Below, one piece after another: positions 77 to 36,765 of a DNA stretch of 56,702 nucleotides. A program made the position numbers and the translations under genes. Source of the stretch: a virus; UHGV virus genome UHGV-0213557; one strand, 5' to 3'. The notes beneath the pieces were generated by a model. The model had not been told where the DNA came from. It saw only the letters and a program-made list of their open reading frames with translations, and did no database searches. Each line of letters opens with the position of its first letter. Position 1 is the first letter of the stretch.

Positions 77-187
77 TTCTATCTTATTATATATATATAT
101 CTATATCTGTTTCTCTTATTTTCAAAAGTTTAATTCTAAATTCTTCTTTTCTCTTTTCAATATCTATACTATCAAGTAAATTCTCAT
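77..187 (-). CDS. Small leader-adjacent ORF (~36 aa, MYENLLDSIDIEKRKEEF...), diverged paralog of 1881-2075
   Basis: Hand translation. The MYENLL/MCENLL N-termini and the flanking DNA are conserved between the two copies. Confidence 0.3.
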
Positions 188-217
188 ACATTGTATTACC
201 CCCCCAAAAACTAAAAT

Positions 218-3407: not shown

Positions 3408-3831
3408 ATTTTGAATCCACATAGTTAATATAAAACAATTATCCATACCTTTAAAAATTATCTTGCTTCCATTATTTACATACCACTTAGTTAATATAAA
3501 ACATTCAAGAAGTAACTGTAATTGTTCATCTGTAAAATAATTTACATTCCATATAGTTAATCTAAAACGATAGACAAAGCTAGTGCAGACGCTAAAGTAC
3601 AATCATTTACATTCCATATAGTTAATCTAAAACCTTTCATAACTGATGTTAAAGACTCATTATATGTACTATTTACATTCCATATAGTTAATCTAAAACA
3701 GAAAGATTAAAAAATAGAATGATACTTCTTACAACATTTACATTCCATATAGTTAATCTAAAACGAATAACAATAAGAATAACAACAACAATAAAAAGGT
3801 TAATTTACATTCCATATAGTTAATCTAAAAC
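3408..3831 (-). CRISPR. CRISPR array 2: seven repeats. Two distal repeats are the ...CCAC[A/T]TAGTTAATATAAAAC type; five leader-proximal repeats are the variant ATTTACATTCCATATAGTTAATCTAAAAC. Leader at 3832-~4030
   Basis: Repeats start ~3408, 3474, 3540, 3605, 3671, 3736, 3803. Variant reverse complement GTTTTAGATTAACTATATGGAATGTAAAT. Leader (ccccaaaataaac...ctcaaatttgcagtga...gtgcaattgataaca...) is paralogous to 56489-56702. Confidence 0.9.
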
Positions 3832-4029
3832 CCCAAAATAAACTTGGCATTTCCAATACCTACACATACGCATCTCTCTCAAATTTGCAGTGAACCATGA
3901 GTAGTGCAATTGATAACATTTATCACACACCCTCAATACCTTGTATTCCAATTGTTAAACTTCAATTTATCGCAAATATTGCTCACTGCAAAATCTCTAC
4001 ATTTTTATTATATCATAAAAATATTATTT

Positions 4030-4170
4030 TTGAATATCTGTACCAATTTGTGGTATAATAAAAGCAAGGAAATAATTTACTTTATACAAGAGTAGCTATT
4101 TCCATCAAAATTGATTTAAAGAATTATTTTTTTAAATCACCCTTATTGGCGTCTGGGTGATTTTTTATTT
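4030..4170 (+). ncRNA. Putative antisense antitoxin sRNA for toxin 4124-4228: promoter TTGAAT-N18-TGgTATAAT (4030-4059), TSS ~4067, terminator hairpin TCACCC..GGGTGA+T7 at 4137-4170
   Basis: Extended -10 and intrinsic terminator on the plus strand overlapping the toxin 3' end. Confidence 0.4.
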
Positions 4171-4228
4171 TGTCATAAATATAAGCTGATATAACACCAG
4201 CTAGTATGCTTAATAAAAAACCTATCAT
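4124..4228 (-). CDS. Type I toxin-like small membrane peptide (34 aa: MIGFLLSILAGVISAYIYDKIKNHPDANKGDLKK)
   Basis: Hand translation; GGAGGTGAAATTAT-ATG RBS; hydrophobic N-terminal helix plus charged tail; convergent antisense promoter and terminator (next feature). Confidence 0.55.
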   Translation of the reverse strand: MIGFLLSILAGVISAYIYDKIKNHPDANKGDLKK

Positions 4229-4494
4229 ATAATTTCACCTCCTTCCTTATTTGGAATTTGGCGTTTAATATGAAAATAATCACCCTTCGCACTTTCGATT
4301 ATTATCCTTGCTACAATTATTATAACATATAATTATTACATATTTTTCCATTTTTTTTATATAAACAATGAAATTCAAGTAAATAAATACCTACTTATTT
4401 ATATATATTTTATAAATTAATTGCTTTATAATCAAGTTTTCAATTTTTTAATAAAAATTTTTATTTTTTATTTTATATAAACAATATTTTTTCT

Positions 4495-4652
4495 AATTTG
4501 TGGTATAATAAAAGCAAGAAGAACTACAATCTATTTTGCGGTAGAGTGAAGTTCATAATTAAATGAATCTATTTGAACTTATGGAACTTGATTTTAAAAT
4601 CAAATTCCCAGCCACTTTTACTCTTGCCACGAGTTGAGTGGCTTTTTACTTT
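4495..4652 (+). ncRNA. Putative antisense antitoxin sRNA for toxin 4569-4730: TGgTATAAT at 4501-4509, terminator AGCCAC..GTGGCT+Ts at ~4609-4652
   Basis: Paralogous to the 4030-4170 unit (shared aatttgtggtataataaaagcaag). Confidence 0.4.
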
Positions 4653-4730
4653 TAGAAATACTTTACAAATTAAGCAAAATATTAAACTAGCAATAACGCC
4701 AGCTATTACATTAAGTAAAAAGTTATTCAT
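4569..4730 (-). CDS. Type I toxin-like peptide (53 aa: MNNFLLNVIAGVIASLIFCLICKVFLKVKSHSTRGKSKSGWEFDFKIKFHKFK)
   Basis: Hand translation; RBS GGAGGTGGGAAGT-ATG; TM helix plus Lys-rich C-terminus. Toxin promoters (TGTTATAAT, minus strand) at ~4318-4330 and ~4819-4831 give ~80-nt 5'UTRs. Confidence 0.6.
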   Translation of the reverse strand: MNNFLLNVIAGVIASLIFCLICKVFLKVKSHSTRGKSKSGWEFDFKIKFHKFK

Positions 4731-4877
4731 ACTTCCCACCTCCTTTCATTAGGAAGTAGGTTTTATCCCAGTATGAACTCCACTCTATAAATTGTAGATT
4801 ACATCTTCTTGCTAAAAATATTATAACATATAATTATTACATATTTTACCTATTCTATATTTATTTTTTTATTTTGC

Positions 4878-5070: not shown

Positions 5071-5511
5071 TTAGTTTTTTGCTTCTTCTACTTTATCCTC
5101 AAAAGATGTATCAAATCCATTGACTTCATTCACTTTTACTGTATAATTGACATACTCACCTGCTGTAAGCATTGTCTTTAATAACTGAGCTTCTCCCATT
5201 ACTCCATAACTATTTTGGAGTTCGGCATCCTTTAAATCTGGAAATACTGTAGATGCTACACATAATTCAGCTACATAACTATTGTAGTCAATTTCACTTG
5301 TATATTGTCCAGTATGCTTACCATTGTTACCAATCACTTTTACTCTTTTAGTACACTTTCTTCTTAGTGCTTCGTCTTCTTCAGATGATAAAACTTTTAA
5401 TTCCCATTCAACTGGTTTCCCTTCTTTATCTAAAAATCTGTTACTCGCTACATATTTTACATTATCAACCTTTATTGCATTTTGACTTAAAAAAGCACTT
5501 AAATTACTCAT
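5071..5511 (-). CDS. XkdN-like tail assembly chaperone
   Basis: Position immediately after sheath and tube in a PBSX-like tail module; 146 aa, acidic. Confidence 0.45.
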   Translation of the reverse strand: MSNLSAFLSQNAIKVDNVKYVASNRFLDKEGKPVEWELKVLSSEEDEALRRKCTKRVKVIGNNGKHTGQYTSEIDYNSYVAELCVASTVFPDLKDAELQNSYGVMGEAQLLKTMLTAGEYVNYTVKVNEVNGFDTSFEDKVEEAKN

Positions 5512-32449: not shown

Positions 32450-33013
32450 ATGAGCATTTTATCAGATAGATTGAAATTTCTTAGGAAAGAAAAAGGTGTA
32501 ATGCAAAAAGAAATTGCCAACTATCTTAACATAACTACTAGTGCATATGGATTTTATGAACAAGGTAAAAGAACACCTACCCCAGAAATGTTATCTAGTT
32601 TAGCTGAATATTTTGGCACTACTGTTGATTATTTAATAGGTAGGTATGATAATAAAGCAAGCAATATTTCTAGCAAAACTTCTTGTAATAATACATTATT
32701 TCAAAAAAGACTAAAAGAACTTAGAGCTGAAAAAAATATGACTCAAGAAGATGTTGCAAATAAATTAAACTTAACCAAAAGCGCTTATGGTTATTATGAA
32801 CAAGGAAAGACAGTTCCTGATGCTTATATGCTATCTAGCCTTGCTGAAATATTTAATGTGACTACTGATTATTTATTAGGTAGGTCTATTGTAAAAAATG
32901 ATATAGACACTGTAGCTGCACATAGAGTTAATCCTCACAAAGATTTACCAGAGGAAGCTCAAGAACAACTCAATGATTATATTGAATTTTTAATAAATAA
33001 GTATAAAAAATAA
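32450..33013 (+). CDS. Tandem double XRE-HTH protein; likely lysogeny repressor (ImmR/CI-like)
   Basis: Two HTH_XRE units (..MQKEIANYLNITTSAYGFYEQGKRTP.. and ..TQEDVANKLNLTKSAYGYYEQGKTVP..); divergent from the Cro-like 32076-32297. Confidence 0.65.
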   Translation: MSILSDRLKFLRKEKGVMQKEIANYLNITTSAYGFYEQGKRTPTPEMLSSLAEYFGTTVDYLIGRYDNKASNISSKTSCNNTLFQKRLKELRAEKNMTQEDVANKLNLTKSAYGYYEQGKTVPDAYMLSSLAEIFNVTTDYLLGRSIVKNDIDTVAAHRVNPHKDLPEEAQEQLNDYIEFLINKYKK

Positions 33014-33036
33014 ATTAAAAGTAGGTGATAAATTAT

Positions 33037-34626
33037 ATGAAATCTATAATATCAGATGTCATAAACCGATTTAATGCTACACCATTTTTATTTGTTGGTT
33101 CTGGTTTAACTAGAAGATACTATAATCTTCCAAATTGGGAGGATTTACTAAAAGTCTTTGCAGAAAAAATTAGTAATGATGACTTTATATATACAAGTTA
33201 TAAAAATAAAGCAAAATCAGAGAACCCAAAAATGGGTATAAATCCTAGAATTGCAGAACTTATTGAAAATGATTTTAATAAAAAATGGTTTTCAGATTCT
33301 TCTATACGAAGCTTAGACTCTAAGTATTTAGATATTGTTAAATCAGGAGTTTCTCCATTTAAGGCAGAAATTGCTATGTATATTAAAAATAATTCTAAAA
33401 TAGTAGATAAATATCAAGATGAAGTTGAAAAACTTAGTAATATCTCTAAAAAAAGTTTATCAGGATTTATTACAACAAATTATGATTGTTTTTTGGAAAC
33501 TATCGTTGATAATTATACAACATATATAGGTCAAGAAAATTTAGTTTTTTCATCTATACAAGGTATTGCAGAAATTTATAAAATTCATGGATGTGTTTCT
33601 TCTCCAAATAGTATTGTAATAAATGAAGCTGATTATATAGACTTTGACAGCAAAAGTGCCTACTTGGCAGCTAAGCTAATGACTATATTTGTTGAGTTTC
33701 CTATCATATTTATTGGTTACTCTGTTACAGATGTAAATATAAAAAAAATACTTAATGCTATAGTTAATTGTCTATCTAATGAAAATGCTAAAAAACTCGA
33801 GGAACGTTTCATATTCATTGAGTATGAAAAAAACTTTAATGATATAGAAATATCAAGTCATACAATTGTTTTTGATAATAAAATGATTACTATGACTAAA
33901 ATTAAACTGGAGGATTTTAATTTACTCTATGAGGCATTATCTGAAAAAAAATCAAAATTACCAGTTAGAATATTAAGAATGTTCAAACAAGAATTTTACG
34001 ATTTCACAATTACTAACAAACCTACTGCTAAAATTCGGGTTGGTAGTGTTGATGATACAAGAATAAAAGATGAAGATTTAGTTTTAGCAGTTGGCAAGGC
34101 AAGTGATTTTGGTCTTAAAGGATTAAAAGGATTAAGTTTTGATGAATGGTATCGTGATATAGTCATGAATGACTTAGAATTTTCATCAGATGAATTACTT
34201 GAATATGCTTATCCATCTTTAATTAAGCAATATAATAAATTACCATTAAATAAACATCTTTTTAATAGCACACTTGAATTTCCAGATTATAGGACAATTG
34301 CACTAGAAAGTGACTTTGAAAATATTATTAGCAATAGTATTAAAAAAAATAGAAATAATACTTACATAAAAAATAGAAGTGTTTATGGTATTTGGAATGA
34401 TGAACATCAATCATTTGAAAAAGCTACAAGACTTATTGCTTTTTTAGAAGAAAAAGAAATTGACACTGAACAGTTAGAAAATCTACTTAAGAAAATATTT
34501 GAGGAAAATCCTAATATTTTAGAGTCTGCAAAAACAAGCGAAAAAACAAATTTAAGAAGGCTTATTAGAATATATGACTACATGAAATACTCTAATATGC
34601 AAAAGAGTCTTGGTTATAGTGAGTAA
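33037..34626 (+). CDS. SIR2_2-family NADase-like domain protein with a ~250-aa C-terminal domain of unknown function
   Basis: PFLFVGSGLTRRYYNLPNWEDLL (as in ThsA AIFAGAGLS...W..LL), ITTNYDCFLE (TTNYD), IYKIHGC (His motif). Start placed at the ATG after GTAGGTGA. Confidence 0.7.
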   Translation: MKSIISDVINRFNATPFLFVGSGLTRRYYNLPNWEDLLKVFAEKISNDDFIYTSYKNKAKSENPKMGINPRIAELIENDFNKKWFSDSSIRSLDSKYLDIVKSGVSPFKAEIAMYIKNNSKIVDKYQDEVEKLSNISKKSLSGFITTNYDCFLETIVDNYTTYIGQENLVFSSIQGIAEIYKIHGCVSSPNSIVINEADYIDFDSKSAYLAAKLMTIFVEFPIIFIGYSVTDVNIKKILNAIVNCLSNENAKKLEERFIFIEYEKNFNDIEISSHTIVFDNKMITMTKIKLEDFNLLYEALSEKKSKLPVRILRMFKQEFYDFTITNKPTAKIRVGSVDDTRIKDEDLVLAVGKASDFGLKGLKGLSFDEWYRDIVMNDLEFSSDELLEYAYPSLIKQYNKLPLNKHLFNSTLEFPDYRTIALESDFENIISNSIKKNRNNTYIKNRSVYGIWNDEHQSFEKATRLIAFLEEKEIDTEQLENLLKKIFEENPNILESAKTSEKTNLRRLIRIYDYMKYSNMQKSLGYSE

Positions 34627-35634: not shown

Positions 35635-36765
35635 ATGAAAGGTGGAGTAAGAAAAAGAAGTAACAAATGGTATTACTACTTTGACCTAGGCATAGTAGAA
35701 GGAAAAAGAAAAAAAGTAGAAAGAGTTGGAGGCAATACTAAAAAAGAAGCAGAAAAAGCCTTAAGAGAAGCACTAAATGAATATGAAAACTCTGGCATAG
35801 TATTTGAAGAAAGCAATATCAGTTTATCAGACTACTTAGACTTTTGGTACAAAGAATATGTCTTACTTAACTGTAAATACAACACTCAAGAAAGCTACCG
35901 AATAAACATAGAAAAACATATAAAGCCAAAACTAGGAGCTTACAAAGTAAAAGCTTTAACTCCTGCAATACTACAAAACTTCATAAACAGAAAGTACAAA
36001 GAGGATTACTCTCAAAATACATTACAAGTATTAAAAGCCATATTACATAGGTCATTAAAATCAGCAGTCCATCCTTACAAACATATACGAGAAAACCCTA
36101 TGCAATATGTGAGCATACCAAAAACTAAATCTAAAACAGAAACTAATAAAATTAAAACTATTACATTAGAAGAATTTAATCAAATACTAAATATATTTCC
36201 TCAAGATTCATTTCAACGTATAGTTTTACTAATTGGATTTCATACTGGTATGCGAAGAGGTGAAATTATTGCACTAAAATGGGATAATATAGACCTTGAT
36301 AATAAAACTATCACAGTAAGACATACTTTGATTAAAAAACCAAATGGAATGTTTGAATTAGGGCAACCAAAAACAGAAAGCTCTTGCAGAACTATATTTA
36401 CAGGTGACACTTTAATAAAGGCATTAAAAGAACATAAATTATATCAAAAGAAAATGAAATTAAAATATGGAGAATTTTACTTTGATAGTGACTGGGTATG
36501 TACCAAAGAAAATGGTCAACAAGTGAATACTCACACTTTAGACACTATAGTAAGACAAATTCGAGTAGCTTTAAACAATGACTTCCATTTTCATTCTTTA
36601 AGACATGCACATGCTACTCTATTATTAGAAAATGGTGCTAACATTAAAGACATACAAAACCGTTTGGGCCATAGCCAACTATCAACTACAATGGATACCT
36701 ATTCACATGTAACTGATAAAATGAAAAATGAAACTGTAGATATATTTGAAAAAATTACAAATTAG
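35635..36765 (+). CDS. int: Tyrosine integrase (site-specific recombinase)
   Basis: ..LIGFHTGMRRGEIIALKWDNID.. / ..HSLRHAHATLLLENGANIKDIQNRLGHSQLSTTMDTYSHV.. (R..HxxR..Y). Confidence 0.9.
   Translation: MKGGVRKRSNKWYYYFDLGIVEGKRKKVERVGGNTKKEAEKALREALNEYENSGIVFEESNISLSDYLDFWYKEYVLLNCKYNTQESYRINIEKHIKPKLGAYKVKALTPAILQNFINRKYKEDYSQNTLQVLKAILHRSLKSAVHPYKHIRENPMQYVSIPKTKSKTETNKIKTITLEEFNQILNIFPQDSFQRIVLLIGFHTGMRRGEIIALKWDNIDLDNKTITVRHTLIKKPNGMFELGQPKTESSCRTIFTGDTLIKALKEHKLYQKKMKLKYGEFYFDSDWVCTKENGQQVNTHTLDTIVRQIRVALNNDFHFHSLRHAHATLLLENGANIKDIQNRLGHSQLSTTMDTYSHVTDKMKNETVDIFEKITN

Follow-up and report, generated by a model that had tools for sequence, protein, structure and literature searches.

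Two tandem predicted type I toxin–antitoxin modules beside a CRISPR leader in a temperate C. difficile phage, identical in sequence to CD0956.2-RCd10 and CD0956.3-RCd14

Organization of the locus

The stretch of DNA analysed here (the window; 56,702 nucleotides) comes from a phiC2/CDMH1/phiCDKH02-type temperate myophage. Position 56702 of the window continues directly into position 1 in two C. difficile chromosomes (L012/L013, 5021|5022); this identifies the window as a circularly permuted, complete 56.7-kb phage genome with an arbitrary cut. The 56702/1 junction is spanned by a 10-bp hairpin (AAAGCACTTG/CAAGTGCTTT). The locus is situated in the tail-gene region, where it is flanked by the tail-assembly chaperone gene (5071-5511) on one side and by the genes that lead up to the tape measure on the other. 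It consists of two small minus-strand genes, each faced by a predicted convergent plus-strand RNA, and of a CRISPR array whose leader end faces the two modules and which is separated from the nearer, 34-aa gene by 293 nt. The features are given below with coordinates, strand and basis.

3408..3831, minus strand: CRISPR array A, 7 repeats of 29 nt (GTTTTAGATTAACTATATGGAATGTAAAT on the minus strand); Rfam RF01327 CRISPR-DR14
3832..4034, minus strand: leader A with promoter; promoter scan, 10/12 matches with TG
4034..4007, minus strand: leader A promoter, -35 TTCAAA 4029-4034, 16 nt spacing, extended -10 TGATATAAT 4007-4015
4030..4059, plus strand: promoter of antitoxin RNA 1 (RCd14/RCd15 equivalent), TTGAAT-18 nt-TATAAT with TG extension, extended -10 TGGTATAAT 4051-4059; promoter scan and repeat family D2
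4066..4168, plus strand: antitoxin RNA 1 (RCd14/RCd15 equivalent), predicted, about 103 nt; dG -24.1, z -4.2
4066..4312, minus strand: toxin-1 mRNA, predicted, 247 nt, start 4312, 84-nt 5'UTR; fold z -4.0
4124..4228, minus strand: toxin gene 1, 34 aa (CD0956.3 / CD2907.2), MIGFLLSILAGVISAYIYDKIKNHPDANKGDLKK; ORF and primers JP694/JP574
4137-4168, plus strand: terminator 1, stem 4137-4143/4156-4162, 7-8 bp G+C, then U run TTTTTTATTTT; fold
4319..4327, minus strand: toxin-1 promoter, extended -10 TGTTATAAT; repeat family D3
4501..4509, plus strand: promoter of antitoxin RNA 2 (RCd10/RCd9 equivalent), extended -10 TGGTATAAT
4516..4649, plus strand: antitoxin RNA 2 (RCd10/RCd9), 134-nt short form; dG -34.9, z -4.35, length as by RACE (PMC5961336, Table 1)
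4516..4813, minus strand: toxin-2 mRNA, 298 nt, start 4813, 83-nt 5'UTR; dG -96.9, z -8.3
4569..4730, minus strand: toxin gene 2, 53 aa (CD0956.2 / CD2907.1), MNNFLLNVIAGVIASLIFCLICKVFLKVKSHSTRGKSKSGWEFDFKIKFHKFK; ORF, UniProt and NCBIfam
4609-4652, plus strand: terminator 2, outer stem 4610-4643, inner stem 4626-4642 followed by TTTTT; terminator scan and fold
4820..4828, minus strand: toxin-2 promoter, extended -10 TGTTATAAT; repeat family D3
about 55600-56488: second CRISPR array, repeat variant GTTTTATATTAACTATGTGGTATGTAAAT, 12 repeats at or over the Rfam gathering score

Two further regions of the phage genome were recorded. The lysogeny module (32450-34626) contains a double-HTH repressor-like gene (187 aa) directly before the gene of a 533-aa SIR2_2-domain protein, which is a candidate prophage-encoded anti-phage defence gene. 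Between the integrase gene (35635-36765) and the amidase endolysin gene (41075-41887), positions 38582-40981 encode a protein of 799 aa in which three CWB2 cell-wall-binding repeats are combined with LRR repeats and which appears to be a phage-borne surface protein.

The toxin genes and their peptides

The initial annotation had described minus-strand peptides of 34 and 53 aa with good ribosome binding sites, each composed of a hydrophobic helix and a Lys-rich tail. Both ORFs were present as quoted, with an AGGAGG at 4238-4243, 9 nt before the ATG at 4228, for toxin gene 1 and at 4739-4744, 8 nt before the ATG at 4730, for toxin gene 2. The ORF listing runs toxin 2 out to a GTG at 4739; the AGGAGG precedes the ATG at 4730. 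The description of the peptides was likewise borne out: the N-terminal halves are hydrophobic, with mean Kyte-Doolittle values of about +2 (+2.05 for residues 1-18, +1.81 for residues 1-27), and the Lys/Arg-rich tails carry 5 and 8 Lys/Arg. Both peptides thus have the features of type I toxins, being shorter than 60 aa and hydrophobic, with a predicted transmembrane helix and a charged C-terminus.

A comparison with the type I toxins of C. difficile, which had been suggested as a check, gave an exact match for the longer peptide. The 53-aa sequence is that of UniProt Q183Z5 (Q183Z5_CLOD6, strain 630) and is present on about 1,000 contigs; its close cluster relatives bear the NCBI name 'type I toxin-antitoxin system toxin'. 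Against the NCBIfam model NF047374 (CD_typeI_toxin), for which the curated HMM cutoff is 60 bits, it scored 97.5 bits (E 4e-28) over the full length. The 34-aa peptide scored 53.6 bits (E 2e-14), which is under this cutoff because it is a short variant that lacks the C-terminal third of the model; it shares 36% identity with the 53-aa peptide over the N-terminal part. By the identity of its locus, the 34-aa peptide is CD0956.3/CD2907.2, and its membership of the family rests on this identity.

Promoters, transcripts and terminators

Four promoters had been proposed from the sequence, namely plus-strand extended -10 promoters at 4051-4059 and 4501-4509 and toxin promoters at ~4318-4330 and ~4819-4831, the latter with 5'UTRs of ~80 nt. 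We found TGGTATAAT at both plus-strand positions and TGTTATAAT within both minus-strand ranges, and the leaders came to 84 and 83 nt. The promoters belong to conserved blocks that occur in two pairs and make up repeat families D2 and D3 (89-93% identity); in D2, the block of the RCd14-type promoter is 89% identical to that of the RCd10 promoter. The motif TATAAT-N3-6-AGCAAG occurs four times in the 56.7 kb (0.15 expected), exclusively at these four promoters.

Start sites were predicted from the -10 boxes alone, as the A located 7 nt after each box. For module 2, this could be compared with published RACE data, in which the CD0956.2 mRNA measures 298 nt, ends 3' at the RCd10 start and has a 5'UTR of 83 nt, and RCd10 occurs in an abundant form of 134 nt and a form of 283 nt (Maikova et al. 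2018, PMC5961336, Table 1). The predicted mRNA extends from 4813 to 4516 (298 nt) and leaves 83 nt between 4813 and the ATG at 4730; the end of the 134-nt RCd10 falls on 4649 (4516 + 133), 7 nt beyond the terminator stem. All three predicted lengths (298, 83 and 134 nt) hence equal the RACE values, and the published long form of RCd10 corresponds to run-on until about 4798. For module 1, the start of antitoxin RNA 1 at 4066 is a prediction by analogy with RCd10; in the literature, too, the promoter and start of RCd14 were 'deduced from the alignment' (PMC7699646).

All four predicted transcripts folded better than 200/200 shuffled sequences, with z from -4.0 to -8.3. Antitoxin RNA 2 folds into four hairpins, the last of which is the terminator. 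Each antisense RNA (roughly 100-134 nt) has its own promoter and terminator and is complementary to the toxin 3'UTR and to the final third of the coding sequence, the positions in module 1 being predictions. Plus-strand terminators at both toxin 3' ends (4137-4170 and 4609-4652) had also been claimed, and both were recovered, the second by the terminator scan and the first by folding; the scan missed terminator 1 because its 12-nt loop is longer than 8 nt. The minus-strand 'terminators' that the scan returned within the toxin ORFs, at 4704-4685 and 4202-4184, were rejected as conserved AGCTGG...CCAGCT-like coding hairpins without real U runs. Rfam searches (the region at E ≤ 1, the whole window at the gathering threshold) returned CRISPR-DR14 repeats only, and neither an antitoxin RNA family nor a c-di-GMP riboswitch. 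The absence of this riboswitch indicates that there is no module of the CD0977.1-RCd11 type here.

An apparently perfect palindrome at 4583-4608 (GGAACTTGATTTTAAAATCAAATTCC) lies in the codons of the highly conserved C-terminal motif WEFDFKIKF and forms a hairpin in toxin mRNA and antitoxin alike, with compensatory changes among relatives. As it both codes and pairs, the same bases are under coding and RNA-structure constraint.

Identity with the published cassette

Positions 4030-4860 of the window are identical, base for base, to both prophage copies in C. difficile 630Δerm (LN614756.1; L009, L010), which were retrieved in the contig look-up among those encoding the 53-aa peptide. The larger segment 3001-5600 shows 100% identity to a C. 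difficile assembly (L007, GCA_029356455.1). We further placed the published cloning primers for CD0956.2-RCd10 and CD0956.3-RCd14 (Supplementary Data 2, Peltier et al. 2020, PMC7699646) on the window. All seven gave a single exact match each, in the expected order and orientation, and the matched sets bracket both modules: JP694/JP574 bracket CD0956.3, the 34-aa gene, exactly, JP663/JP664 enclose P-CD0956.3-RCd14-P and JP659/JP660 P-CD0956.2-RCd10-P, with JP695 of the same primer set also matching. For CD0904.1 and CD0977.1, the two remaining modules of phiCD630-1, the published primers had zero matches in the window, and tblastn with both toxins as queries found no further toxin copies in the 56.7 kb, from which it follows that this phage carries the two-module cassette only. 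In strain 630, the CD0956.2-RCd10 / CD0956.3-RCd14 cassette of phiCD630-1 is duplicated in phiCD630-2 as CD2907.1-RCd9 / CD2907.2-RCd15 (PMC5961336, PMC7699646).

We are therefore highly confident, from this identity, that the region represents a pair of paralogous type I toxin-antitoxin modules from a phiC2/phiCDKH02-type temperate C. difficile myophage, which are identical in sequence to CD0956.2-RCd10 and CD0956.3-RCd14 of strain 630. The initial annotation had placed two tandem type I loci of the CD0956.2 family beside a CRISPR leader, in agreement with the identical DNA; its statement that the architecture matches toxin-antitoxin pairs of C. difficile prophages was right as to the match and too cautious as to its extent, the DNA being that of the published system itself. 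Judged by sequence, the feature is already known; it is the CD0956.2-RCd10 / CD0956.3-RCd14 cassette described in the literature, carried here by a different phage backbone. The value as a discovery is accordingly small. The practical gain is that the 34-aa gene and both antisense RNAs usually go unannotated, so that a real, unannotated system had been recovered from raw sequence. The annotation of phiCDKH02, for instance, gives 'hypothetical protein' only. (Five rows were used in alignment A1; that of phiCDKH02 was left out.)

Conservation among related phages

An IMG/VR scan with the 53-aa peptide yielded 77 loci, which reduced to 37 distinct segments with identities from 100% down to about 50%. 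Every one of the 37 segments has an intact ORF of 49-53 aa with indels in multiples of three, a toxin promoter 97-103 nt upstream of the ATG, and an antitoxin promoter 209-227 nt past the ATG on the opposite strand. Base pairing has been maintained as well. Among 22 distinct mRNAs, a pair in the antitoxin terminator stem alternates in a compensatory manner between GC (14) and AU (8), and one in the neighbouring hairpin between UA (10), UG (7) and CG (5).

These data bear on the trivial explanation that the locus comprises chance small ORFs and promoter-like AT-rich intergenic sequence without gene products. TATAAT-like strings and short ORFs are indeed common in such an AT-rich region, and the promoter scan gave fewer sites in it than in shuffles (5 vs 8.4). 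Against this stand the uniqueness of the four-promoter motif in the window, the retention of ORFs and promoters with in-frame indels only in the 37 distinct relatives, and the identity with loci that have been characterised experimentally. Together with the published experiments, these findings refute the explanation, to which we assign a practically negligible probability.

In some related phages, a mini-array of 2-3 repeats is followed by a third short toxin gene (L015 2832-2933 and L020 2764-2865; also L004 and L005), whose product shares 73.5% identity with the 34-aa peptide. The cassette can thus be iterated.

Predicted folding of the toxin mRNAs

In the predicted fold of the 53-aa mRNA, the Shine-Dalgarno sequence is enclosed in a 10-bp anti-SD hairpin (CCUACUUCCU/AGGAGGUGGG). 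At the corresponding place, other C/U-rich anti-SD elements are predicted for the 34-aa mRNA and for the more distant relatives. When representatives were folded separately, a C/U-rich element was seen in each 5'UTR class, with modest z of -0.9 to -2.8; RNAalifold retained only 4 anti-SD pairs because MAFFT misaligns the two 5'UTR classes.

Both toxin mRNAs are further predicted to be closed by long pairing of their 5' and 3' ends, with a 30-bp clamp in the toxin-2 mRNA. The clamp arises because one and the same promoter-plus-leader block (TATAAT-N-AGCAAGAAGA...GAGTGGAGTTCAT) stands in inverted orientation at the two ends of each module, 4516-4560 with 4770-4828 and 4066-4105 with 4275-4327; the toxin 5'UTR is a near-copy of the antitoxin 5' domain. 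Over the 30-bp clamp, 658/658 cells were paired among 22 distinct relatives, and the variation consisted of six one-sided, wobble-compatible changes and zero compensatory ones. As the 3' arm of the clamp is also the 5' hairpin of the antitoxin, conservation alone does not prove the clamp, which we regard as conserved and consistent, not proven. Neither the clamp with its inverted blocks nor overlapping divergent -35 hexamers (see below) figure in the available sections of PMC5961336, PMC7699646 and PMC6563280.

The CRISPR arrays and their leaders

The two leader-distal repeats of array A are degenerate. Their position at the far end places the leader at 3832 to about 4000 and indicates that the array is read on the minus strand. 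The modules are found directly beside a type I-B array in a prophage, as is characteristic of the CRISPR-associated type I systems of C. difficile. The promoters of the RCd14-type RNA (plus strand) and the pre-crRNA (minus strand) are divergent, and their -35 hexamers, TTGAAT at 4030-4035 and TTCAAA at 4034-4029, overlap by 5 bp, so that transcription of antitoxin and crRNA could be coupled or mutually exclusive. A possibly new, and in our estimate doubtful, proposal from these models is that the antitoxin 5' domain would compete with the inverted-repeat clamp and that the RCd14-type and pre-crRNA promoters could be mechanically coupled or exclusive. Both points, the mRNA clamp predicted here and the CRISPR and antitoxin promoters placed back to back, add modestly to the published picture; they are computational only and open to testing.

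The second array has degenerate distal repeats besides the 12. Its leader shows 86% mean column identity to leader A, with a conserved -10 box, TGGTATAAT on the minus strand. A search of its leader side across the circular junction revealed no toxin-antitoxin module, only a charged ORF of 34 aa and a hairpin. This highly charged ORF (MYENLLDSIDIEKRKEEFRIKLLKIRETDIDIYI; 87-191, minus strand) follows the ORF6N gene, is called as a gene in the L012 annotation and is not toxin-like.

The arrangement at array A raises the question of whether the modules are chiefly functional partners of the adjacent array instead of addiction elements, acting through dormancy during interference or adaptation or through co-control with the pre-crRNA. 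At all 24 loci with a 53-aa toxin of 98-100% identity and at least 1.2 kb of downstream sequence, the 34-aa gene follows about 340 nt downstream and CRISPR repeats come next, which shows that the tandem cassette at the leader end is fixed in this phage lineage. Such a partnership would also fit the overlapping divergent promoters, the reported co-regulation by Sigma B and in biofilms, and the co-localisation in most of about 2,500 genomes (PMC5961336). The second array, however, has its homologous leader without an adjoining module, and toxin variants of 84% and 66% identity mostly stand alone and mostly have no CRISPR repeats within 1.5 kb. Moreover, plasmid stabilisation needs no array (PMC7699646), and no experiment links toxin activity with CRISPR function. 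We consider a primary role in CRISPR function unlikely and favour the modules as addiction elements.

Published function and proposed mechanism

The functional data come from the identical modules of strain 630. Induction of CD0956.2/CD2907.1 (PMC5961336) and of CD0956.3 (PMC7699646) arrests growth of C. difficile, and in both cases the cognate antisense RNA reverses the arrest; for CD2907.1/CD0956.2, rescue was reported in cis and in trans and by the cognate antitoxin only (PMC5961336). In vitro, the toxin mRNA pairs with the antitoxin RNA, and E. coli RNase III cleaves the resulting duplex; the half-lives of the two RNAs differ, with about 35 min for the CD2907.1/CD0956.2 mRNA and about 13 min for RCd9/RCd10 (PMC5961336). 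The toxin peptides are membrane-associated (PMC5961336, PMC7699646). Each module stabilises an unstable plasmid, with 22-64% retention compared with 1% for the empty vector, and after excisionase induction a prophage lacking four toxin genes was found in <10% of cells, compared with >90% for the wild type (PMC7699646).

As small membrane peptides with a single helix, whose genes lie as morons between those for the tail-assembly chaperone and the tape measure, the toxins might also be phage membrane proteins for the lytic cycle or for exclusion (holin-like, superinfection exclusion or abortive infection), with antisense RNAs timing their expression; type I toxins have often been likened to holins (PMC6563280). 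Yet the phage already possesses a lysis module, which includes the amidase at 41075-41887; moreover, lysogens express the toxin genes, and toxin-gene deletions alter prophage retention (PMC7699646). The available sections of PMC5961336, PMC7699646 and PMC6563280 describe no phage-infection phenotype. A lytic or exclusion role thus appears improbable, even more so than a partnership with the CRISPR array.

The published results on identical DNA point instead to post-segregational killing by a 3'-overlapping antisense pair. According to this mechanism, each small membrane peptide would be expressed on the minus strand from a TGTTATAAT promoter and opposed by a convergent plus-strand antisense RNA, which would form a duplex with the toxin mRNA that is then cut by RNase III. 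Folding and comparison suggest that the anti-Shine-Dalgarno hairpin and the 30-bp 5'-3' clamp would keep the primary toxin transcript untranslated. Since the toxin mRNA is stable and the antitoxin labile, cells that lose the element would be poisoned, and plasmids and the excised prophage would in this way be stabilised.

Comparison with known systems

The hok/sok system of plasmid R1 also acts by post-segregational killing with a long-lived toxin mRNA and a short-lived antisense RNA, as proposed for the modules of the window. In the hok mRNA, too, the 5' end pairs with the 3' end to close the molecule; in the window, the corresponding clamp is a prediction. Sok, however, pairs at the 5' end (mok leader), whereas the overlap is at the 3' end in the window modules; hok/sok is moreover a Gram-negative system with a peptide unrelated to the toxins described here.

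The B. subtilis prophage pairs txpA/RatA and bsrG/SR4 have, to our knowledge, no CRISPR neighbourhood, and they share no sequence similarity with the window modules. In organization they are alike: they too reside in prophages and consist of convergently transcribed genes with overlapping 3' ends, of which one encodes a small membrane toxin; RNase III attacks the RNA duplex, and the ribosome binding site is masked by the structure of the mRNA (PMC6563280).

The closest systems are those of C. difficile itself. CD0956.3-RCd14 / CD2907.2-RCd15 (Peltier et al. 2020, PMC7699646) has identical DNA and encodes the same 34-aa toxin, with no sequence difference. CD0956.2-RCd10 / CD2907.1-RCd9 (PMC5961336) agrees with the window in the DNA of the whole module, the 53-aa toxin, the 298-nt mRNA, the 83-nt 5'UTR and the 134-nt antitoxin, and is also found beside a prophage CRISPR array, so that the host phage is the sole difference. 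Past the array, the phage described here has a 57-aa ribbon-helix-helix-like ORF, Bro-N and ORF6N genes and the second array, whereas in 630Δerm the array is directly followed by genes of 186 and 189 aa and then by the tape-measure gene.
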